64,000 bases of DNA from Planctomycetota bacterium (GTDB taxonomy: Bacteria; Planctomycetota; SZUA-567; H5-PLA8), in assembly GCA_016200135.1 (NCBI GenBank), contig JACQFI010000044.1, forward strand, positions 15,390-79,389. Reading direction: 5' to 3'. The notes below the pieces were generated by a model, which did not search any database, was not told where the DNA came from, and saw only the letters and a list, made by a program, of their open reading frames with translations. The position numbers and the translations under genes are program-made. Position 1 is the first letter of the stretch. Every line of letters starts with the position of its first letter. This document shows positions 425 through 45,091 of the stretch, piece after piece.

Positions 425-940
425 TTACTTCTTGTCGGAACCGAAGAAGTCGTCCAGGGCGGATTCGGCGGCCTGCTGGTACTCCTGGCTGACGCCGGAG
501 GCCTTATCCTTATTCCTCTCCATGCTGGCCAGCATGGTGTCGGTAAGCTTCTGGGTCAGTTCCTCGGCGTAGAGCCGGACCATGCCAAGAGTGGTTCGGT
601 CGTCAAAGATGACCACAACCAGGGCGCGCTCGGCCACCAGTCCGATATGGATGTTCTCGTTCTTACCCTGGTGAAAGAGGACGGAGAATTCGGTCTCGCC
701 CAGCAGCTTCGCGACTTCGCGCGTCGAAGCGAACGAACCCGCAACCAGGGCGGCGATGGAGTCGGTATTGAACGACTTGGTGAAGCCCTTCTTGGTGACC
801 AAGTGGCCTTCCTTGTCGATCAGGAGCGCGCACTTGGCCTGGGAGCGTTCGAGGAAGTGCTCGAGGATCTTGTTAATCTCTTCGATATCTTCTTCATAGA
901 AGACCAGACGCGCCTTGCGCATCTTTTCGCTGAATTCCAT
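425..940 (-). CDS. mglB: MglB-like Roadblock/LC7 GTPase-activating protein
   Basis: Translation (LLIDKEGHLVTKKG...VVVIFDDRTTLGMVRLYAEEL...DDFFGSDKK) aligns along its length with Myxococcus MglB as I remember it (Roadblock/LC7 fold, acidic C-terminus). I chose the internal ATG at 940 because a GAGGAGG RBS lies 7 nt upstream; the ORF extends to 976. Confidence 0.8.
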   Translation of the reverse strand: MEFSEKMRKARLVFYEEDIEEINKILEHFLERSQAKCALLIDKEGHLVTKKGFTKSFNTDSIAALVAGSFASTREVAKLLGETEFSVLFHQGKNENIHIGLVAERALVVVIFDDRTTLGMVRLYAEELTQKLTDTMLASMERNKDKASGVSQEYQQAAESALDDFFGSDKK

Positions 941-1086
941 CTCGTTTCCTCCTCGATCCCCACAACGCTCCGGCACATAACCGCCGCTGCCGGAGCCTGC
1001 ACAGGTCGATGATTAGGCTCTCCAGTAATACTCCCGTTTGCAGACTACGTCCAGCCTTTTGTGGACGGGCCGCATGCACACCTCTG

Positions 1087-2241
1087 CTACAGCTTGATGA
1101 ATCCTCCAAAATACGCCGCGGCGGCTGCCGCCACCAAAAGCAGCACGACGATGCCCACAATCAACCCTGCCTTGCTTCCGCCTTCAGACACGGGCTCAGG
1201 CGCGCTTTCTTCAGGGACCGCGGACGCTTCCTCCGCAGGCGCACTCACCTGCTGCTGCGCCGCCGCTTCGGCTTGGCGGCGCCGGGCGATCTCAAGCGAG
1301 ACCGGGTTCATCTTCATCGTGGATTGCACCGGCGACTCGGCAGGCGCCGATTCGGTCATCGGGGGCGGCGGCGGCGCGGGTGCGGGCGCTGGGGCCGGCG
1401 CGGGTGCAGACGCTCTAGGCGGTGGTGGCGGCGCAGGAGCCGGGGCGACGGCCACCGGAGCGGGCACAGGGGCCGGCGGCGGTGGCGCGGCGGGTCTGGG
1501 CGGCGGCGGCGGCGGAGGCGGCGGTGCGGCACGAGGCGGTGGAGGAGGCGGTGGCGCAGGCACGGAGGCAGGCGGCGGCGGCGGAGCCGCGGGCCTCGCC
1601 ATGGCCGATGAGCGCGCCGTAGCGCCGCCACGTTTGGCGCCGTCTTCGCTGTAGCCCTGTTCGCGATTGAGCTTGCGGATGACCTGCTGCGAAATGGCCT
1701 TTAATGTCTGGAAGACGCCGTCGCCGTTCACGGCCACCGCTTCGACCGTGGGCCAGTTGTTGCGGTTCATCTTGGCGTTGAGTTCTTCGGCGGGCACCGC
1801 ATTGGGAAGGTCGCGTTTGTTCCACTGCAGCACCAGCGGGATATCGTTGATGTCCAGCCCGTTCTCTTTCAGGTTCTTGGCCAGGTTCTCGAGAGACTCG
1901 ATGTTCTCGTTGATCATGTCCGGGTTCGAGTCCGCGACGAAAACGATGCCGTCGCAGCCCTGGAGCACCAGCTTGCGGGTCGCGTCGTAGTAGACCTGCC
2001 CGGGCACGGTGTAGAGCTGGAACTTGGTCCGCATGCCGGCCACGGTGCCGAGGTCCAGCGGCAGAAAGTCGAAGTAGAGGGTGCGGTCGGTCTCGGTGGC
2101 GATGGAGACGAGTTCGCCGGTCGAGTTCGCGGGCGCCTTGGCGTGAACCACCTGGAGGTTCGTCGTCTTGCCGCAGCGGCCGGGACCATAAAAGACGATC
2201 TTGCAGTTTACTTCTCGCGTCGCGAAATTGATCTGGACCAT
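1087..2241 (-). CDS. mglA: MglA-like Ras-superfamily small GTPase with ~110-aa polyproline/Ala-Pro linker and a C-terminal transmembrane tail anchor
   Basis: The N-terminal ~195 aa nearly match MglA motifs: P-loop GPGRCGKTT, switch I TETDRTLYFDFLP (intrinsic Arg finger and Thr), switch II TVPGQVYYDA, and NKRD. They are followed by PPPPPPPP/APAPAP low complexity, an acidic segment and a terminal hydrophobic helix GLIVGIVVLLLVAAAAAAYFGGFIKL. Confidence 0.85.
   Translation of the reverse strand: MVQINFATREVNCKIVFYGPGRCGKTTNLQVVHAKAPANSTGELVSIATETDRTLYFDFLPLDLGTVAGMRTKFQLYTVPGQVYYDATRKLVLQGCDGIVFVADSNPDMINENIESLENLAKNLKENGLDINDIPLVLQWNKRDLPNAVPAEELNAKMNRNNWPTVEAVAVNGDGVFQTLKAISQQVIRKLNREQGYSEDGAKRGGATARSSAMARPAAPPPPPASVPAPPPPPPPRAAPPPPPPPPPRPAAPPPPAPVPAPVAVAPAPAPPPPPRASAPAPAPAPAPAPPPPPMTESAPAESPVQSTMKMNPVSLEIARRRQAEAAAQQQVSAPAEEASAVPEESAPEPVSEGGSKAGLIVGIVVLLLVAAAAAAYFGGFIKL
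1380..1625. repeat. Extremely GC-rich (GGC/GCC/CCG)n low-complexity DNA encoding the polyproline linker of mglA
   Basis: Runs of ggcggcggc / gccggg seen directly. The opposite strand gives poly-Gly/Ala/Arg ORFs (1061..1654, 1009..1611), which are antisense artefacts. Confidence 0.6.
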
Positions 2242-32124: not shown

Positions 32125-32150
32125 GGATCATGCAACCTGGAGCCTCGACC

Positions 32151-32966
32151 ATGAACTTCACCAAGCGCTATCGCGTTAAGCCGGGCTCCAAAGTTAAACT
32201 CAAAGAACGTGACCCGGACGACTCCGCGGGCTTCAAGAAGAAGGACCGCGAGGAGATCGAAGCGCTTGTCCGCAAGAACATCCAGCGCCTGGACGAACTC
32301 CAGTATCTGCTTTACGCCGAGAACAAGCGCTCCTTATTGATGGTGCTCCAGGCCATGGACGCCGCGGGCAAGGACGGCACCATCCGCCACGTGATGACCG
32401 GCGTCAATCCGCAGGGCTGCACCGTCACGTCGTTCAAAAAGCCCTCCGACGAGGAACTCGACCACGATTTCCTCTGGCGCATCCACAAGGCCGTGCCCAA
32501 CAAGGGCGACATCGGCATCTTCAACCGCTCGCACTACGAAGACGTGCTGGTGGTGCGCGTGCACGAGATCGTACCCGAAGAGGTCTGGGCCGAGCGCTAC
32601 GAGCAGATCAATCGCTTCGAGAAGCTTCTGGCCGACAACAATGTCGTGATCGCGAAGTTCTTCCTGCACATCGGCAAGGATGAACAGCTCCGCCGCTTCC
32701 AGGACCGCCTCCAGGACAAGAACAAGCACTGGAAGATCAGCCCGTACGATTTCGCCGAGCGGAAGTATTGGAACGAGTATCAGAAAGCCTACGAAGACGC
32801 GCTCTCGAAATGCAGCACCGCACACGCGCCGTGGTACGTCATCCCGGCCAATAAAAAATGGTTCCGCGACCTGGCGGTCTCGCAGATCCTCGTCGAGACG
32901 CTCGAGTCGCTCGACATGCGCTTCCCCGAGCCCAAGTTCGATATCTCAAAGATCAAAGTGGAGTAA
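32151..32966 (+). CDS. ppk2: Polyphosphate kinase 2 (PPK2) family nucleotide phosphotransferase
   Basis: Walker A-like MDAAGKDG, PPK2 blocks FNRSHYEDVLVVRVH and the lid region, ~270-aa single-domain form. I chose ATG 32151 (GGAG 8 nt upstream); the ORF starts at 32130. Confidence 0.85.
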   Translation: MNFTKRYRVKPGSKVKLKERDPDDSAGFKKKDREEIEALVRKNIQRLDELQYLLYAENKRSLLMVLQAMDAAGKDGTIRHVMTGVNPQGCTVTSFKKPSDEELDHDFLWRIHKAVPNKGDIGIFNRSHYEDVLVVRVHEIVPEEVWAERYEQINRFEKLLADNNVVIAKFFLHIGKDEQLRRFQDRLQDKNKHWKISPYDFAERKYWNEYQKAYEDALSKCSTAHAPWYVIPANKKWFRDLAVSQILVETLESLDMRFPEPKFDISKIKVE

Positions 32967-33804: not shown

Positions 33805-35145
33805 TCATTTCTCCGGCGCGGACTCCGCCTTCACGTTCTTCATCTCGTTCCCTTCCAGCTTCAGGCCCTTCACGTCCTTGCCGATCTTGAAGCCGGGCTT
33901 CTCCGCGGACTTTGAATACCCAATCGTATTCTTGCGGAAGACAAGGTCGTTCGTCTGGCCGAGGATGCGCACGGGCGCGGCATCGGGCTGCTCCAGGCCG
34001 TTGTCCACGATCTCGTTCTCTTCGAAGACGTTGCGGTGCGCGCCCATCGGCTCGTCCTCGTTGCGGAAGAGCACGCCGCTCTTGCCGTTGCCCGCAATGC
34101 GGTTCTTGCGGAAGACGTTGTCGGTGTCCTTGTGCCCGATCGAGATGCCCTGGCCTTTGTTGCCCTCGATCACGTTGTCCTCGAAAACGCCGTCCTTCAC
34201 GCGCCAGCAGACGAAGATTCCGTCGCTCCCGTTATTGAGCGAGCGGTTGCGGCGCAGCACCGGATCGCCCGAGCCGCTGCCGGGATGCAGCCCAAGCTGC
34301 GCGCAGTCTTCCACAAGACAGTCTTCAACCGTGACGTGGTTCGAGACCTGGAACGAGATCCCGTCGCCGTTGTAGCCGCGGACGGTGCTATGGAGAATCG
34401 CGATGCGCTCGCACTCGAAGAGGTAAATGCCGCCGCCACGGCAGCCGTTGAGCGGCTGCGCTTTCGCGCGATTGCCCTCGATGCTTAAGCCCTCGACGCT
34501 TGCATTCTTCACCTGGTATCCGGCGATGACCGGAAACGTCAGCCGCGCCGTGGCCTCCTGGGCGACCATGTAATCGTAGTACAGCGGCGTGGAGATGCGG
34601 AACGTGTTCGCGTCCACCTTGGCAAGCAGCGTCGCCGTGGTAACGCCGAACCCGCCGCCCATGTTCTTGTCCTGCACGCTGATGCCGTCGCCGCTGCGGA
34701 AAACCGAGGCGTCCGCCAGCGTTACTTGCCGCTCGTTGCAGTCGCCATCGAGCTTCAAACGCGTCTCCGCGCCGTCGCATGCGGAGAAAATAGTTTTGCC
34801 GTGCGTGCCGGTGACGTGGACGCCGTTTCTCAGGAACAGCGCGTTGCGCATCGTGTAACGGCCGGGTTCGACGCGCACCACGCCGCCGCCCAGGTTGGCG
34901 ACGTAATCCACCGCCGCCTGAAGCGCGCGGTGATCGTTGCCACGGATATCGCCTTCGTCCTGGCCGACGGTGATCTCGACGGGTGCATGCATGGCCTGGT
35001 CTCCTCGAACGGCAACGGCGTTCGCGTTGGAAGCGTTTGCGCCGTTCGTCCCATTCGCCTCGCGGTTCTTGTTGGCTTCTTCGGCCGCGCGCGCGGGTCC
35101 GAAGAGAAAGAACATCGCCAGCAGCGCAACGCACATCCTTCGCAT
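33805..35145 (-). CDS. Secreted right-handed parallel beta-helix repeat protein (pectate-lyase-fold)
   Basis: Signal peptide MRRMCVALLAMFFLFGPARA. It has repeated NxxxxN/GNxGxGI motifs typical of PbH1 repeats (NVIEGNKGQGISIGH, NRIAGNGKSGVLFRN). Confidence 0.75.
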   Translation of the reverse strand: MRRMCVALLAMFFLFGPARAAEEANKNREANGTNGANASNANAVAVRGDQAMHAPVEITVGQDEGDIRGNDHRALQAAVDYVANLGGGVVRVEPGRYTMRNALFLRNGVHVTGTHGKTIFSACDGAETRLKLDGDCNERQVTLADASVFRSGDGISVQDKNMGGGFGVTTATLLAKVDANTFRISTPLYYDYMVAQEATARLTFPVIAGYQVKNASVEGLSIEGNRAKAQPLNGCRGGGIYLFECERIAILHSTVRGYNGDGISFQVSNHVTVEDCLVEDCAQLGLHPGSGSGDPVLRRNRSLNNGSDGIFVCWRVKDGVFEDNVIEGNKGQGISIGHKDTDNVFRKNRIAGNGKSGVLFRNEDEPMGAHRNVFEENEIVDNGLEQPDAAPVRILGQTNDLVFRKNTIGYSKSAEKPGFKIGKDVKGLKLEGNEMKNVKAESAPEK

Positions 35146-39270: not shown

Positions 39271-40215
39271 ATGAAGAATATCCCGCGCATCCTCCTCCTC
39301 GACAAGGACGCCAACACGCGCAAACTCCTGGCCGCGGTGCTTCAAGGCGCGGACGAAGCCGATATCCGCGAAGCCGCCACACACGCGGACGGCTTGGCGC
39401 TCGTAAAAGGCAGTCCCAGTACAGACCTCGTCATTCTCGACCCGGCCAGCATCTCTAAACGGGGCTCAGAAGCGATCGGAGACTTTCGCGCGGCCGGCCC
39501 CGGCGTGCCCGTGCTCGTGGTCTCGAAAGTCCAGAACGAGAAGTCCCTCGCCCGCGCGATGGAACTCGGCGCGGACGACTACCTGGTCAAGCCCGCGGAC
39601 ATTATCGAGTTCCGCAAGGCCGTCGCGCGCCTCTTGCAGGAACGCCGCGACATCCTGGCCGCCAGCAACGCCAACGATCCCGCGCGTTCCAGCCTCCTGA
39701 TCCGCTCCGAAGGCGAGGGCATGCTCGTCGAGGTCTCCGCGCCTTCGGGTTCCATGCACATCGCCCGCTTCGAACGCTTCGTGAACCGCCTGGTGGCCCT
39801 GAACCTGACCTCCGAGGAGAGTCTCAAGCTGCGCCTGGCGCTCGAAGAAGTCATCACCAACGCCAAGGAATGGGGCAACCGCGGCGATCTGAAGAAACTC
39901 ATCCGCATGTCCTACTGTCTCCTGCCCGACCGCCTCACCTTCCGCGTCGAAGACCAAGGCGAAGGCTTCGACCCAAGCACGATCCCCGATCCCACGCTGG
40001 ACCCGTTGAGCCACGTGCGCGACCGCCGGGCCAGCGGCAAGCGCGTCGGCGGCTGGGGCATCCTGCTCGCGCGAAAATCCGTGGATGAAGTAGCCTACAA
40101 TCGCAAAGGCAACGTCGTCTTTCTGACCAAGTACCTGCGCCGACCGGCGGACCCGAGTCAGACCGGCTCGGAGTCCGGCCATTCGGCCAAACCCAAGGCC
40201 GGGGCCGGCGCGTAA
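39271..40215 (+). CDS. Response-regulator receiver domain fused to GHKL/HATPase_c (RsbW-like anti-sigma-factor kinase) domain
   Basis: REC features (ILLLDKD, DLVILDPAS, LVVSKV, K-containing LGADDYLVKP) followed by an RsbW-like ATPase (EEVITNAKEWG...GGWGILLARKSVDEV). Confidence 0.75.
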   Translation: MKNIPRILLLDKDANTRKLLAAVLQGADEADIREAATHADGLALVKGSPSTDLVILDPASISKRGSEAIGDFRAAGPGVPVLVVSKVQNEKSLARAMELGADDYLVKPADIIEFRKAVARLLQERRDILAASNANDPARSSLLIRSEGEGMLVEVSAPSGSMHIARFERFVNRLVALNLTSEESLKLRLALEEVITNAKEWGNRGDLKKLIRMSYCLLPDRLTFRVEDQGEGFDPSTIPDPTLDPLSHVRDRRASGKRVGGWGILLARKSVDEVAYNRKGNVVFLTKYLRRPADPSQTGSESGHSAKPKAGAGA

Positions 40216-40255
40216 GCCAGTGGAGCTGGGAAATCCCTGCAACAGGAGGTTCGAG

Positions 40256-41227
40256 ATGCCGGACGTGGTAGCCGTGGACCTGGGCGGGACGAACATCCGC
40301 GCCGCACGCGTCGATGCCGCGGGCAAGGTGCTCGGGCGCGATAAGATCTCCACCTTGGCCGAAGAAGGCATGGGCGCCGTCGTCAAACGCATGGCCGACC
40401 TCGTCAACCGCGTGCGCGGCCCCGAGACCGTCGCCATCGGCATCGGCACGCCCGGCACGCCCGATCCCGATACCGGCGTAATGAAGTCCCGCGCGGTCAA
40501 CATCCCCGACAGCCAGGGCTTTCCCCTCTGCCCGGAACTCAAGAAGATTACCGGCCTCACCGCCGGCGCCGACAACGACGGCAACCTCGCCGCGCTGGGC
40601 GAATACTGGCTCGGCGCGGCCCGCGGCGAGCACATTGTCCTGCTCTTCACGCTCGGCACGGGCATCGGCGGCGCCTGTGTCATCGACGGCCTCGTCTATC
40701 ACGGACACTCCAATCTCGGCACCGAGTTCGGCCACGTCACCATCGACCTGAACGGCCGCAAGTGCCCCTGCGGCTGCGTCGGCTGCCTCGAACAGTACGC
40801 CTCCGCCGCCGCCGTCGGCCGCGACGCCCGCGAGGCCCTCGCCAAAGGCGGCAAGGACGCCCAGGCCAGCCTGCTCTGGAAACTCTGCAGCGGCGATCCG
40901 CAAAAGGCCGATGCGAAGATGGTTTGCGACGCCGCCCGCGACGGCGACGCCTTCGCTTCGCGCCTGCTCGACACCGGCTGCGACTATCTCGCCGCGGGCG
41001 TAGGCTCACTCATGAACGCCTTCAATCCGAGTTGCGTCATTCTCGGCGGCGGCATGGCCCTCGCGGGAGACGTAGTGCTCGGCCGCGTGCGCAAGCGCCT
41101 GGACGCGGGCCGCGCCTACGCGCCCATCGCCCGTGACGCTAAGCTTGTGGCGGCGACGCTCGGTGACGATGCGGGCCTGATCGGCGCGGCACGCTTTGCG
41201 TTCCAAAAGGCGGGCGTGCGCGTTTGA
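40256..41227 (+). CDS. ROK-family sugar kinase (glucokinase-like)
   Basis: Perfect AGGAGG RBS. N-terminal VAVDLGGTNIRAA, DNDGNLAALGE, and the ROK zinc motif GHxxxxxxCPCGCVGCLE. Confidence 0.85.
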   Translation: MPDVVAVDLGGTNIRAARVDAAGKVLGRDKISTLAEEGMGAVVKRMADLVNRVRGPETVAIGIGTPGTPDPDTGVMKSRAVNIPDSQGFPLCPELKKITGLTAGADNDGNLAALGEYWLGAARGEHIVLLFTLGTGIGGACVIDGLVYHGHSNLGTEFGHVTIDLNGRKCPCGCVGCLEQYASAAAVGRDAREALAKGGKDAQASLLWKLCSGDPQKADAKMVCDAARDGDAFASRLLDTGCDYLAAGVGSLMNAFNPSCVILGGGMALAGDVVLGRVRKRLDAGRAYAPIARDAKLVAATLGDDAGLIGAARFAFQKAGVRV

Positions 41228-41338
41228 CCTTCTTCGAGGTATACAAAAGTAGTTTGAATTGTGCATTTCTGCGGTAGGTTCAACCGTCAGTGCCCATAAA
41301 CGTTGCGTTATCAGGGTGTCCTTTTAGGGGGGGACCCC

Positions 41339-44300
41339 ATGAGCAGTATGATCGTCATATGCGCAGGGTGCGGCAAGAAGTACAAGGGCGCGCCCAGCCA
41401 GAAGAAGTTCAAGTGCGGCCAATGCGCCAATCTCTACACGTTTCCGGTCGGCGCGCAGTCGCCCGGACCCGGCAAGCTTCTCTGTTCCTGCTGTTGGATG
41501 CAGCACGCCAATACGCCGGCCCTCAAAGAGTGCTCTCAATGCAAGCAAAAGATCTCCTCCAAGTTTGTGGGCAAGGCCCTCTGGATTGCGTCGCTTCCGG
41601 CCAATGAAGTCGAAGGCGACGAGAGCGGCGGCGGTACGGCGCCCAAGTCTCCGGCGAAGCCCAGTTCCGTCTTCCTCAAGCAATCGCCCTTGGCGGCCGG
41701 CGGCGCGAAGCTCTCCAACCCCGGCTTGAAGGTAGCGCCGCCCGCGGGCCCCAAACCCTCAACCCCGGGCGTTAAGGCCGCGCCTGCAGCGCCCGCAACC
41801 GCTTCGCGTGTGGGACCTGCCACGGGGCCTGCCCCTGCAGCCGTCACGCCGTCTTCGGCAGCGCTCAAGAGCGCTCCGGCTCCGGCAGGCGCCTCGCGCG
41901 TCGGCGCGGCGGCTCCCGCGCCCCGGCCGTCTTCCGCGGGGTTCAGGGCCACGCCCACGCCTGCGAGTGGCACTCGAGTTGTTCCAAGCGCGCCCAAGGC
42001 CAACACGGGACTGGACATCTTTCCCAAGCCCGCGCCGGCTCCGGTCAGGATCTCCAGCGCGGGCCTGAACGCGGTGCCGCCCAAGGCGCCTGCGCAGGCT
42101 CAAAATGTAGATGCCGATATATCCTCGATCTCTTCCTTCTTCGACGACGCCGACAAGGGTCCCATGAAGCCCTTGGCCGAGCCTAAGAAGGAGGAATCCT
42201 CGGCGGCCATCGATCCCACTCTCGCCGCCGCGGTGCTCAAAGAAGAACTCAAGGCGACCAAGTCGTCGGCCTCCAAGTCGGCCGTGCCTGCGGTAAAGAT
42301 GCCGGCGTCGGCCAAGTCCTTCGCCGGCGGCCTGCTCGGCCAGCTCTCCGCGCCTTCCACCACTTCCAATCGCGCCCCTGTGCCCAGCACCGATCTCGAA
42401 ACGCGCCTGATGCACGAGATCAAGCATGCCGAGCAGCTCTGGCGCGACCTTGAAGCCGCGCGCAAGGCTCTAAAGGAAAAAGGCGGCCCGTCCGCGGGCA
42501 TCGCCGAGTTCCAGGAGCGCCTCCTCGCCAAGGATCGCGAGCTCTCGCAGGCCCGCGCGGCGCTCGACGAGAACCGCAAGAAGCTCGCCACGCTCCCCAA
42601 GCTGGAAGCGAAGCTTGCCGCCGAGACCGAGGCGCGCGAGGTCGCCCACCAGGCGCTCGAAGAATCCGAGAAGGCGATGCAGCAGTTCGAGACGCGCATC
42701 GCCGAGCTCGAAGCGCAGCTCAAGAGCGCCCCTGCCGCGCCGGCAGCCGATCCCGCAGAACTCGCGCAGGCGCGCGCGGACCTCGAGGAGAAGGCGGCCC
42801 AAGCCGCCGATCTCGAAGGGCAGCTCGCCGCCGACCGCCAGGCGCTCGACGTGGCCATGCAGGAGAAAGAGACCGCCGAGGACGCGCGCTTCAAGCTTGA
42901 AGTCCGCCTTGCGGAGACCGAGAAGAAGCTCGCCGAAATCCAGAATCAGGCCGCCGCGTCCAGCCAAGCCGGAGAGGCCGCGAAGCAGCTCGAGGACGAA
43001 CTGAGCCGCGCGAGCAAGGCCGCCGAGGAAAACGCCGCCGCCGCCGAACAGGCCCGCCAGGAACAGGAAGCCGCCTTCAAGGAACTCGAGGCCGCGCAGA
43101 AGGCCCTCGAAGACGCGCGCGCGGCCGCGGCCTTGGCCGCGGAAGAGTTCGAACGCAAGCTCGACGACGAGCGCCGCGCCAAAGCGGGCGTCGAGATCGC
43201 GCTCAAGGCCGCCGAAGAGGGACGCGCCGGCGAAGAGACGGGCCGCAAAGGCCTCGAAGCCCGCGTCACCGAGCTCGAACAGCAGCTCGCGTCCGCCCAA
43301 GAACACCTGGAGTCCGTGCGGCGCGCCGCGGAGTCTTCCCAGGCCGCCACCGTGGAGCTCGAGAAAGCCCAGAAGGACATCGAGGCCTTCCAGTCCACGG
43401 TCTCCGCGCTTACGACGCAGTTCGAGGAGGAAAAGCGGGCCCGCGAGGCCTCCGAGAAACTGCAAGCCGCGGCCGAAAACGCGCGCGAAGCGGCCGAGTC
43501 GCGCCTGAAGGACCAGCAGACCCGGCTCACCGAGACCCAGAGCCAGCTTGCGGGCATGCAGCGCTTCGAGGAAGAGCTTGCGCAGGTCCGTCTCGAGCGC
43601 GACAAGCTCCAGGCCAAGGCCGATGAGCTCGACCAGCGCCTCGCCGAGGAACTCAAGTCCGGCGAGACCTTCCGCCTGGAATGGAACAAGCAGTCGCAGC
43701 TCCGCAAGACGCAGGACGCCAAGCTCGAAGAACTCAAGGACCAGTTCGACGCCGAGAAGCAGGCCAAGGACGCGGCCGTAGCTCAGCGCTACGAGTTCGA
43801 GACCAAGATCAAGCAGCTCGAAGGCGACCTCAACGAGCTTCAGAAAACCTACGCCGAAGACCGCAAAACGCTCGAAGAGCAGCAGCACCAGCTCGACACT
43901 GCCTCCGCCTCAAAGGACGAACTGGAACGCAAGCTCGCTGAGGCCGAAAAGGCCCTGGCCGAGGCCCGCGCGGCGCAGGAGGCCACCGGCAAGGCCCAGG
44001 CCGGCGCCGACCAGGCCCGCCAGGAGTTCGAGCAGAAGGCCGCCGAACTTCAGCAGTCGCTAGGCGCCGCGCAAAAGGAATGCGACGACGCCAAAGGCGA
44101 GATCGAGAAGCTCACGAAATTCCGCGAGGGCCTGGAAGCGCAAGTCAAGGAACTGCGCGCCGCCGCTCAGGCAGCCCCGGCAGGCGCGGCAGGCTCGCCT
44201 CCGGCCGCCACGGCCGGCGGCTCCGTCGAAGTTGAGGAACTCCGCAAGCAGATCGACATCCAGCAGGCCGAGGCCATCCAGGCCAAGGGGCTGCTCGCCG

Positions 44301-45091
44301 CCAAGGAAGAAGAACTCGATCTCATCAAGAAGATGCTCATCGAGTCGCTCTCGCCGCTGGTGCCCGCGTTCCGGCAGGCCCTTGAAACCGTGCGCAGCGA
44401 GGCCGAGCAGCTCGTCACGATCGTGACGCAGGTCCGCCAGACGCTCGACGCCTCCGCCGGCGATCCGGAGAAACTTCGGGAAGTCGCGCAGGAAGTCGTG
44501 CAGATCGAATCCAACGCGGTGGGACTTCAGGGAAAGATCGCGCTCACCAACCGGCAGGTGATCGGCCAGCTCGCCAACGTGATCGGCGTGCCCACGGAGG
44601 AAGGCGAGGCCGAGACGGCCCGCGCTTCCGGAGCCGCACCGGCCGTATCCACCGAAGCGCCTCCGCCCGAGCCCGCAGCGCAGGCCGAAGTCGTCGAGGC
44701 CGGCGAAGTGGAGGCCGAAGAATCCCCCGCTCCGGTGGAAGCGCCCGCCGAAATCCCCGCGGAGCAGGTCGAGGCCGAAGCGGCGCCCGTGGAAGAGCCC
44801 GATCCGCCCAACACGCCCGCGGAAGTCGAAGCCATCCAAGCCGAACTGGCCCAGGACGACGACGATGAAGAGGCGGATGAGGCCCCGAATTCCGCGGCTT
44901 CCAAGCCGATCTCTTCCAAAAAGCCGTCGGCCTTCACTTCCGCCCATCGCCTGAAGATGCAGGCCAAGGCCAAGCCCGCGGCTTCAAACGATGGCGCAGA
45001 AGAAGGCGAGGCCCCCGCCGGCGACGAGTCCGCCGACGCCCAGAAAAAAGGCGGCTTCTTCAACCGCTTCTTCGGCGGGAAGAAGAAATAG
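41339..45091 (+). CDS. Giant (1,251 aa) protein: N-terminal tandem zinc ribbons + Pro/Ala-rich repeat linker + ~900-aa coiled coil + acidic segment + basic C-terminal tail
   Basis: ATG with a G7 RBS-like run upstream. Zinc ribbons CAGCGKKY...CGQC and CSCCWMQH...CSQC. The linker carries repeated S(S/A)AGxxAxP...ASRVG motifs. Then comes a long heptad Ala/Glu/Lys/Gln/Leu-rich region, an EAEA/PAP acidic region, and the end ...KKGGFFNRFFGGKKK. The antisense ORFs are artefacts. Confidence 0.8.
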   Translation: MSSMIVICAGCGKKYKGAPSQKKFKCGQCANLYTFPVGAQSPGPGKLLCSCCWMQHANTPALKECSQCKQKISSKFVGKALWIASLPANEVEGDESGGGTAPKSPAKPSSVFLKQSPLAAGGAKLSNPGLKVAPPAGPKPSTPGVKAAPAAPATASRVGPATGPAPAAVTPSSAALKSAPAPAGASRVGAAAPAPRPSSAGFRATPTPASGTRVVPSAPKANTGLDIFPKPAPAPVRISSAGLNAVPPKAPAQAQNVDADISSISSFFDDADKGPMKPLAEPKKEESSAAIDPTLAAAVLKEELKATKSSASKSAVPAVKMPASAKSFAGGLLGQLSAPSTTSNRAPVPSTDLETRLMHEIKHAEQLWRDLEAARKALKEKGGPSAGIAEFQERLLAKDRELSQARAALDENRKKLATLPKLEAKLAAETEAREVAHQALEESEKAMQQFETRIAELEAQLKSAPAAPAADPAELAQARADLEEKAAQAADLEGQLAADRQALDVAMQEKETAEDARFKLEVRLAETEKKLAEIQNQAAASSQAGEAAKQLEDELSRASKAAEENAAAAEQARQEQEAAFKELEAAQKALEDARAAAALAAEEFERKLDDERRAKAGVEIALKAAEEGRAGEETGRKGLEARVTELEQQLASAQEHLESVRRAAESSQAATVELEKAQKDIEAFQSTVSALTTQFEEEKRAREASEKLQAAAENAREAAESRLKDQQTRLTETQSQLAGMQRFEEELAQVRLERDKLQAKADELDQRLAEELKSGETFRLEWNKQSQLRKTQDAKLEELKDQFDAEKQAKDAAVAQRYEFETKIKQLEGDLNELQKTYAEDRKTLEEQQHQLDTASASKDELERKLAEAEKALAEARAAQEATGKAQAGADQARQEFEQKAAELQQSLGAAQKECDDAKGEIEKLTKFREGLEAQVKELRAAAQAAPAGAAGSPPAATAGGSVEVEELRKQIDIQQAEAIQAKGLLAAKEEELDLIKKMLIESLSPLVPAFRQALETVRSEAEQLVTIVTQVRQTLDASAGDPEKLREVAQEVVQIESNAVGLQGKIALTNRQVIGQLANVIGVPTEEGEAETARASGAAPAVSTEAPPPEPAAQAEVVEAGEVEAEESPAPVEAPAEIPAEQVEAEAAPVEEPDPPNTPAEVEAIQAELAQDDDDEEADEAPNSAASKPISSKKPSAFTSAHRLKMQAKAKPAASNDGAEEGEAPAGDESADAQKKGGFFNRFFGGKKK

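Follow-up and report, generated by a model that had tools for sequence, protein, structure and literature searches.

The window analyzed here is a 64,000-nucleotide stretch of the Planctomycetota contig JACQFI010000044.1, and our subject is one of its genes, which encodes a giant protein of 1,250 amino acids (aa) with an N-terminal double zinc ribbon (ZnR), a long heptad coiled-coil stalk and a conserved C-terminal helical domain (CTD). Three open reading frames (ORFs) were confirmed on the plus strand at 39271-40215, 40256-41227 and 41339-45091. They are the receiver (REC)-HATPase gene, the ROK kinase gene and the giant gene that a sequence-only reading of this DNA had described at these positions; the giant product, given there as 1,251 aa, has 1,250 aa. 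The start codon of the giant gene was set at 41339 because every homologue found begins at the equivalent Met. Judged by its sequence, the protein is a member of a real, conserved and previously undescribed coiled-coil family, and it may serve as a membrane-anchored scaffold or tether. A literature search, itself of incomplete coverage, found no description of the family, and exact-sequence look-ups of the window proteins returned no identical entry on record. The genome scan gave a sole relative, in a Planctomycetota metagenome-assembled genome (JAHCJK010000058.1, hereafter L001). The giant gene and the parts of its product are as follows.

41339-45091, plus strand: gene for the ZnR-stalk-CTD protein, 1,250 aa; ATG at 41339, stop codon at 45089-45091; product begins MSSMIVICAGCG
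41339-41593, plus strand: N-terminal double zinc ribbon, aa 1-85; C8/C11/C26/C29 and C49/C52/C65/C68
41624-42133, plus strand: Pro/Ala/Ser-rich basic linker, aa 96-265; A 24%, P 19%, S 12%; net charge +14
42134-42400, plus strand: conserved Ser/Ala/Lys-rich block, aa 266-354, with SFFDDxDKG, IDPxLAAAVLKEE and GGLLGQLSAPSTTSNRA
42401-44173, plus strand: heptad coiled-coil stalk, aa 355-945; A 23, E 17, L 10, Q 10%; about 88 nm if fully extended
44174-44224, plus strand: Pro/Gly/Ala hinge, aa 946-962, from the stalk to the C-terminal domain
44225-44629, plus strand: C-terminal helical domain, aa 963-1097; the family profile covers aa 998-1097
44597-44878, plus strand: acidic Glu/Ala/Pro tract, aa 1087-1180; net charge -29; contains the conserved EPDPPNTPAEVEAxQAEL
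44903-44977, plus strand: basic motif KPIxxKKPSAFTSAHRxKMQAKxKP, aa 1189-1213; invariant versus L001
45044-45088, plus strand: C-terminal basic tail of QKKGGFFNRFFGGKKK type, aa 1236-1250; candidate MinD-like membrane-targeting sequence; identical in L001

Two conserved ends joined by a spacer of variable length

An exhaustive phmmer search with aa 1-385 recovered 49 cluster representatives, whose shared matches are confined to aa ~1-85 (33-55% identity), and a second metagenome scan, made with the ZnR alignment, added 15 further loci. One relative, P0001, also matches the window protein by phmmer at a second stretch, in the aa 266-354 block. A first metagenome scan with the full-length alignment produced no confirmed relative. 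In a word-indexed search of 5.8 billion proteins the full-length protein drew 8,000 candidates, none significant and probably swamped by low-complexity words; the ZnR alone drew no matches, and the ZnR profile only two short fragments. This index misses the family and does not hold the L001 protein, so that its negatives do not amount to absence. No Pfam or NCBIfam model matches the giant protein above its threshold, the PDB offers no significant relative, and across these three databases we found no homology to a characterized non-cytoskeletal family, which the sequence-only reading had named as evidence against a cytoskeletal role.

Both the ZnR and the CTD occur in at least 42 sequences. 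The stretch that separates them measures 62-991 aa, and its extremes belong to the window protein and its L001 orthologue. The window protein is the longest member known. Since the two domains co-occur despite a separation that ranges 16-fold, the conserved functional unit would be ZnR plus CTD, and the coil an expandable spacer. The L001 orthologue is 52-59% identical to the window protein, with conservation concentrated in the ZnR, aa 266-385, parts of the stalk, aa 965-1085 and the tail.

Many short members, namely P0006, P0007, P0027, P0030, P0039, P0044, P0049, L010 and L022, share another C-terminal motif, GP[LFM]xE[LV]LAAG[IVL]P...A..V.RH. Inspection by eye also revealed repeated units of ~35-40 aa (...ADLE[ST]RL.SE[RK]..K...) in the stalks of P0034, P0037 and P0042, and tandem RDEALK.-type heptads in that of P0030. 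Self-BLAST and a tandem-repeat finder detected no significant internal repeats in the window stalk or linker, so stalks may have lengthened by different routes.

The double zinc ribbon

The ZnR is a module of ~80 aa, located at the extreme N-terminus in nearly all family members, in which eight Cys, W53 and G78 are all invariant. The Cys were checked in 43 family sequences, which bears out the two N-terminal CxxC...CxxC ribbons of the sequence-only reading. The module is basic across the family, with a mean net charge of +4.7 and a conserved motif CGK[KR]YKG...KKFKC, and its AlphaFold2 (AF2) model consists of beta-hairpins with a predicted local distance difference test score (pLDDT) of 91. 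The pattern of the first ribbon, CxxC-x14-CxxC, falls within the N-terminal CxxC-x(14-16)-CxxC ribbon class. Against Pfam gathering scores of 29.3 and 30.3, this ribbon reaches 21.3 bits for Zn_ribbon_5 and 19 bits for Zn_ribbon_4, and 28 of 40 members match Zn_ribbon_4 weakly.

Foldseek comparison of the ZnR and CTD models with the PDB returned nothing below E 0.2; for the ZnR the best value was E 0.3, to generic ribosomal, MCM and RBR ribbons. PDB searches with ZnR, first-ribbon and CTD profiles likewise gave no match beyond insignificant or compositional ones, C2H2 repeats and coronavirus HR1 among them. The best single-domain match of the first-ribbon profile was 2nb9_A (E 5.5e-4), which we take to be the ZitP zinc ribbon. 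The Zn_ribbon_4/5 class includes the N-terminal ribbon of ZitP, which binds PopZ (PMC5182065), and that of GltJ, whose partners are MglB and the GltJ linker itself (PMC11135422). By analogy with these two only, the ZnR head, which would bind zinc, is predicted to be a protein-binding interaction module. In the 352-aa metagenomic member P0041, the double ZnR leads straight into a HisKA-HATPase_c histidine-kinase core, and the protein has no further sensor domain. Because of this fusion, the ZnR looks like a portable module for targeting or input.

Linker, stalk and C-terminal domain

The Pro/Ala linker described by the sequence-only reading is present, but its count of at least four motif copies depends on how the motif is drawn: the strict form, S-[SA]-AG-x-x-A-x-P, occurs twice, ASRVG twice (aa 155 and 185), and a loose form, SxxG[LVF][KRN], five times (aa 126, 141, 172, 198 and 239). 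The apparent significance of the loose form is inflated, since the pattern was defined after seeing the data. The loose form and ASRVG mark degenerate repeats of ~26-40 aa in the linker, and a tandem-repeat finder detected no tandem repeat in the linker at the DNA level. The linker as a whole is poorly conserved relative to L001; similar motifs occur four times in L001, once in P0001 and in none of the other members checked; they are confined to the window clade. Unlike the flanking linker, the block at aa 266-354 is up to 70% identical to L001.

The sequence-only reading envisaged ~900 aa of uninterrupted heptad coiled coil. Instead, the heptad signal exceeds the 95th percentile of shuffled sequence over aa ~330-960 (~600 aa), with several register shifts and weak zones and with Pro-rich breaks. 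Prolines fall in the coil region at 420, at 465/468/472 and at 947/954/955, and the longest Pro-free stretch of the stalk, 475-945, comprises 471 aa or ~70 nm. Profile matches of the stalk are all below threshold, at 22.5 bits versus a cut-off of 40 for Pfam Filament (E 1e-4) and 49 versus 567 for the coil regions of NCBIfam SMC_prok_B. SMC, Rad50 and MukB were considered and rejected as relatives, as only coil regions match and both an SMC_N hit and ATPase heads are absent.

Residues 998-1097, which had been counted as generic coil, are instead a conserved helical domain specific to this family. This second conserved element near the C-terminus was first recognized by reading member sequences. 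A hidden Markov model (HMM) built from 26 members, with the window protein excluded, matches window aa 998-1097 at E 4.9e-11 and L001 at E 7e-11. In the alignment the domain is ~95 aa long; one Pro (P1006) is invariant, and the domain closes with L..V[LI]G.P. Its AF2 model (pLDDT 87) has helices at model residues 2-44, 47-78 and 83-122, a layout in which the stalk helix finishes as a lead-in helix (aa 963-1004) and gives way, after a kink at Pro1006, to two more helices. No Pfam, NCBIfam or PDB family matches the CTD in sequence or fold. A relationship to ESCRT-III/PspA was rejected, both profile and fold matches being absent. The acidic Glu/Ala/Pro tract that the sequence-only reading had noted follows at aa 1087-1180 and is, overall, poorly conserved relative to L001.

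A MinD-like tail on the long members

The giant protein ends in KKGGFFNRFFGGKKK, the basic C-terminal tail already pointed out by the sequence-only reading. Every complete member that reaches 744 aa, nine in total (the window protein, L001, P0001, L020, L021, P0034, P0037, P0050 and P0042), ends in a basic hydrophobic tail of Phi-Phi-x-[RK]-Phi-Phi-G type, where Phi is a hydrophobic residue, and such a tail is missing from all members of up to 607 aa. Examples are GGFFNRFFGGKKK, SSFLGRLFGGKKK, KTFLGRLFGKK, GGLWSKMFGKK and GTFWAKVFKRP. These nine members come from at least five clusters drawn at 50% identity, so that the tail is retained across them, and in a comparison of the last 290 aa of the window protein with P0001 it is the only significant similarity. 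That the tail alone is similar over this region argues for selection on the tail itself.

The window sequence GFFNRFFGG fits the Phi-Phi-x-basic-Phi-Phi-G-G pattern of the MinD membrane-targeting sequence (MTS). In both proteins the element sits at the very C-terminal end, where pairs of aromatic or aliphatic residues bracket a basic one and GG follows (window protein, FFNRFFGG; P0001, FLGRLFGG; MinD, FLKRLFGG). In contrast to MinD, the window tail is carried by a coiled-coil rod, not a ParA/MinD ATPase, and has KKK after the GG. In MinD, dimerization supplies the two helices needed for stable membrane binding, and dimerization of the rod would be expected to provide both helices in the same manner. 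The Escherichia coli MinD MTS, KGFLKRLFGG, has been used experimentally as a membrane tag (PMC5471200). This resemblance makes membrane targeting by the tail a likely prediction.

Gene neighborhood

Two genes lie directly upstream of the giant gene, on the same strand.

39271-40215, plus strand: REC-ATPase gene; Response_reg (E 2.4e-13) and HATPase_c_2 (E 9.3e-21), both above curated Pfam cut-offs
40256-41227, plus strand: ROK gene, 323 aa; Pfam ROK (E 1.8e-57, 195.6 bits)

The first product agrees with the sequence-only description of a receiver fused to an RsbW-like ATPase two genes upstream. Its receiver retains D57, S85 and K107, as read by eye, and the top named NCBIfam matches of its ATPase half are RsbW anti-sigma factors, although far below their cut-offs. 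The ROK ORF begins with ATG at 40256, and a GTG lies further upstream at 40220. Its product has a CPCGCVGC zinc motif of CxCGxxGC type, lacks an N-terminal helix-turn-helix domain and is nearest to the ROK glucokinase subfamily (NCBIfam ROK_glcA_fam, 215 bits versus a cut-off of 260); in sequence it resembles an ordinary sugar kinase of the glucokinase family.

When the window neighbors were compared by tblastn with 22 loci, REC-HATPase_c_2 and ROK adjoined the family gene only in L001 and were absent at the other ~20 family loci, so that the three-gene module implied by the sequence-only reading has no counterpart there. Gene order in L001 is the same as in the window, which is uninformative because L001 is very close (neighboring proteins are 70-85% identical). 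No common neighbor emerged from the annotated contexts of P0001, P0034, P0050, P0051, P0013 and P0032 or from Pfam scans of neighbors at nine more loci. The giant gene is thus probably stand-alone, and the REC-ATPase and ROK genes probably just neighbors.

A PPK2 polyphosphate kinase gene (window 32130-32966, plus strand; L001 2464-3288; L003 6959-7765; L004 6888-7694) lies directly upstream of the family gene in L003 and L004 and 6.7-9 kb upstream in L001 and the window. Its placement is probably a remnant of shared gene order in the clade of long members with a tail. REC or Ser/Thr-kinase genes that are not orthologous adjoin the family gene in L003, L006, L007 and L020; among them, eukaryote-like Ser/Thr kinase genes lie directly beside it in L003 (10493-11875), L007 (7620-10574) and L020 (3007-5871). 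Family linkers are Ser/Thr-rich. Signaling genes are very abundant in these genomes, and as these genes are both abundant and non-orthologous, their scattered adjacencies are compatible with chance and are at most a weak hint of a functional link. Elsewhere in the window, a beta-helix/NosD-like gene (33805-35145, minus strand) lies between a B3_4 gene and an M16 peptidase gene. It is a small lineage-specific insertion, given that the otherwise collinear L001 has no room for it.

A proposed membrane-anchored rod and its alternatives

We favor, at about an even chance, a reading in which the giant gene stands alone and its product, from an undescribed family, is a rod-shaped scaffold or tether anchored peripherally to the membrane. 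In this model the heptad region would form a parallel dimer, giving a stalk of ~90 nm with flexible Pro-rich joints. At the C-terminal end of the rod, the conserved three-helix domain would be followed by an acidic disordered spacer and the MinD-type basic amphipathic tail, and together the two tails of the dimer would hold the rod against the membrane from the cytoplasmic side. The opposite end would carry the compact double ZnR, on a ~260-aa flexible basic linker, as a protein-binding or targeting head. The ZnR and CTD would be the conserved functional ends, and the stalk an expandable spacer that sets the reach of the head from its anchor. It is the architecture of the protein that suggests a scaffold or tether function. 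By analogy, its way of working would be most like that of a membrane-associated bacterial coiled-coil scaffold. An intramolecular antiparallel hairpin was considered as an alternative fold and rejected; a 59-aa insertion in L001 at window aa 578 and the unequal arms of such a hairpin would argue against it.

Several points weigh against a membrane-anchored scaffold. The protein has no characterized homologue, the ZnR matches in Pfam and the PDB all fall below significance or curated thresholds, and parallel dimerization is an assumption of the model. Short members have no tail, and therefore membrane anchoring cannot be the function of the whole family. The helical hydrophobic moment of 10-12-residue tails is 0.14-0.26 for the window protein versus 0.45 for MinD and a mean of 0.33 for shuffles of the window tail; across family tails it is 0.14-0.27, with P0034 at 0.56. 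Because this measure is not discriminating, the MTS assignment is based on pattern similarity and conservation. The family is apparently planctomycete, a taxonomic range that rests on one labeled genome, the Planctomycetota L001.

Alternatively, the protein could be an intermediate filament (IF)-like cytoskeletal element, a coiled-coil-rich protein like crescentin, FilP or Scy, whose rods would assemble with one another, as filaments or as a lattice beneath the membrane, and so give shape to the cell or to its membrane invaginations. We consider this unlikely, but several features are consistent with it. Like crescentin, FilP, Scy and Ccrp proteins, the window protein has a long heptad rod, sub-threshold Filament/Rod_CreS similarity (the Filament match of the window stalk and faint or weak Rod_CreS matches of P0034 and P0050) and probable action at the membrane; a membrane tail is compatible with this alternative, since crescentin-like proteins also act there. 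Assembly could proceed head to tail, with the basic ZnR and linker of one dimer attaching to the CTD and acidic tract of its neighbor, a scheme that would suit both the opposed charges (+21 over aa 1-265, of which +7 lies in aa 1-95, versus -29 in the acidic tract) and the strict co-occurrence of ZnR and CTD despite the 16-fold range of stalk length. However, the Filament score is well below its cut-off, and such matches, like the SMC ones, are typical of any coiled coil. With Filament and Rod_CreS scores below threshold, the protein does not belong to a recognized IF-like Pfam family. In contrast to crescentin and its like, it has globular ends (ZnR and CTD), a 260-aa flexible linker and a candidate membrane-targeting tail, and its family varies 16-fold in rod length; members with ~60-100 aa between ZnR and CTD could hardly build IF-like rods.

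A connection with the Mgl polarity module was also considered, since the window carries homologues of MglA and MglB between 425 and 2241 on the minus strand, 39 kb from the giant gene.

1087-2241, minus strand: MglA homologue, 384 aa; GTPase domain aa 1-193
425-976, minus strand: MglB-like gene adjoining mglA

The sequence-only reading had spoken of an unusual MglA in the same genome. Its GTPase domain is 58.5% identical to what we take to be the Myxococcus xanthus MglA sequence and is followed by a ~150-aa poly-Pro/Ala linker and a C-terminal hydrophobic helix, AGLIVGIVVLLLVAAAAAAYFGGFIKL, by which the protein is apparently tail-anchored. The giant protein could then be an effector or scaffold of this module that contacts MglB or MglA-GTP through its ZnR head or its linker, in the manner of GltJ, with the REC-ATPase perhaps acting as a regulator. 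In GltJ (AgmX) of Myxococcus the N-terminal ZnR binds MglB and a flexible linker binds MglA-GTP (PMC11135422). The window protein resembles GltJ and the Caulobacter protein ZitP in having a ribbon at the extreme N-terminus that weakly matches the same Pfam Zn_ribbon_5/4 families and is followed by a long flexible linker, which, as in GltJ, holds repeated short motifs. It differs from both in its fixed tandem of two ribbons with an invariant Trp, its scores below Pfam cut-offs, the lack of a significant fold match and the lack of transmembrane, DUF3426 and GYF domains. ZnR profiles match GltJ (PDB 7zok_A) only at an insignificant E 0.11-0.26, the linker motifs are limited to the window clade, and MglA/MglB genes were not found at any family locus examined. 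Outside Myxococcales, moreover, ZnR-GYF proteins are reported to be uncorrelated with Mgl operons (PMC11135422). We therefore regard an Mgl effector as improbable.

A more specific version of the Mgl idea, put forward in the sequence-only reading, casts the giant protein and the REC gene as a split counterpart of AglZ and FrzS, the Myxococcus MglA effectors that join a receiver to a coiled coil. The likeness consists of a long coiled coil in an organism with MglA and MglB. The difference is that Pfam finds no receiver in the giant protein and that the nearby REC domain is fused to an RsbW-like ATPase in an adjacency that is not conserved. Lacking a REC domain, the 1,250-aa protein is not of the AglZ/FrzS family, and with the REC-ATPase/ROK adjacency limited to one close relative, the split version is unsupported and ranks, with the operon reading below, among the least supported.

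A third alternative, to which we attach an equally low probability, is a nucleoid-to-membrane tether in which the ZnR head and the linker, both basic, would attach to DNA or RNA and the C-terminal tail to the membrane. The family-wide positive charge of the ZnR and the net charge of the linker suit such a role, many zinc ribbons bind nucleic acids, and the other weak ZnR matches are to TFIIS, TFIIE, RNA-polymerase and ribosomal ribbons. These matches are all insignificant, however, and the linker, Pro/Ala-rich with only 6% Lys, is unlike H1-like Lys-rich repeats; no DNA-related neighbor genes were seen, and short members are without the membrane tail. Least probable of all is one functional three-gene operon in which the REC-RsbW-like and ROK kinases regulate or modify the giant protein: the shared strand, the short gaps of 40 and 111 nucleotides, the order kept in L001, a Ser-rich linker that could be a kinase substrate and the kinase or REC genes beside four other family members are outweighed by the closeness of L001, the absence of both genes from all other family loci, the typical sugar-kinase character of the ROK protein and the general abundance of signaling genes.

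Biological significance

If the giant protein is a membrane-anchored scaffold or tether, its closest eukaryotic analogues in layout would be EEA1 and the golgins, which likewise start with a zinc-binding head, continue in a coil of ~100 nm that is interrupted by flexible breaks and finish in a membrane-binding C-terminus. This is an analogy only, with no sequence or fold relationship to the window protein; the head of EEA1 binds Rab5-GTP and its C-terminal anchor is a FYVE domain. A bacterial counterpart would have its tail on one membrane and its ZnR ~90-100 nm away, capturing a small-GTPase module, for which the apparently tail-anchored MglA or the MglB of the window would be candidates, or a second membrane. 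We rate this extension as highly improbable. Were it true, stalk length would act as a ruler for spacing or trafficking within the invaginated planctomycete endomembrane.

The present analysis defines a lineage-restricted family with two conserved, uncharacterized end domains and a stalk that extends from almost nothing to ~90 nm. It also removes a misleading lead, as the REC-ATPase and ROK genes are best left out of the system. The family is a concrete, testable candidate for a membrane-associated ruler, tether or scaffold. Planctomycetes display unusual cell biology, with budding or FtsZ-less division and a heavily invaginated cytoplasmic membrane, and to our knowledge very few of their structural proteins have been identified. 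The giant protein is a candidate structural protein for planctomycete cell biology.

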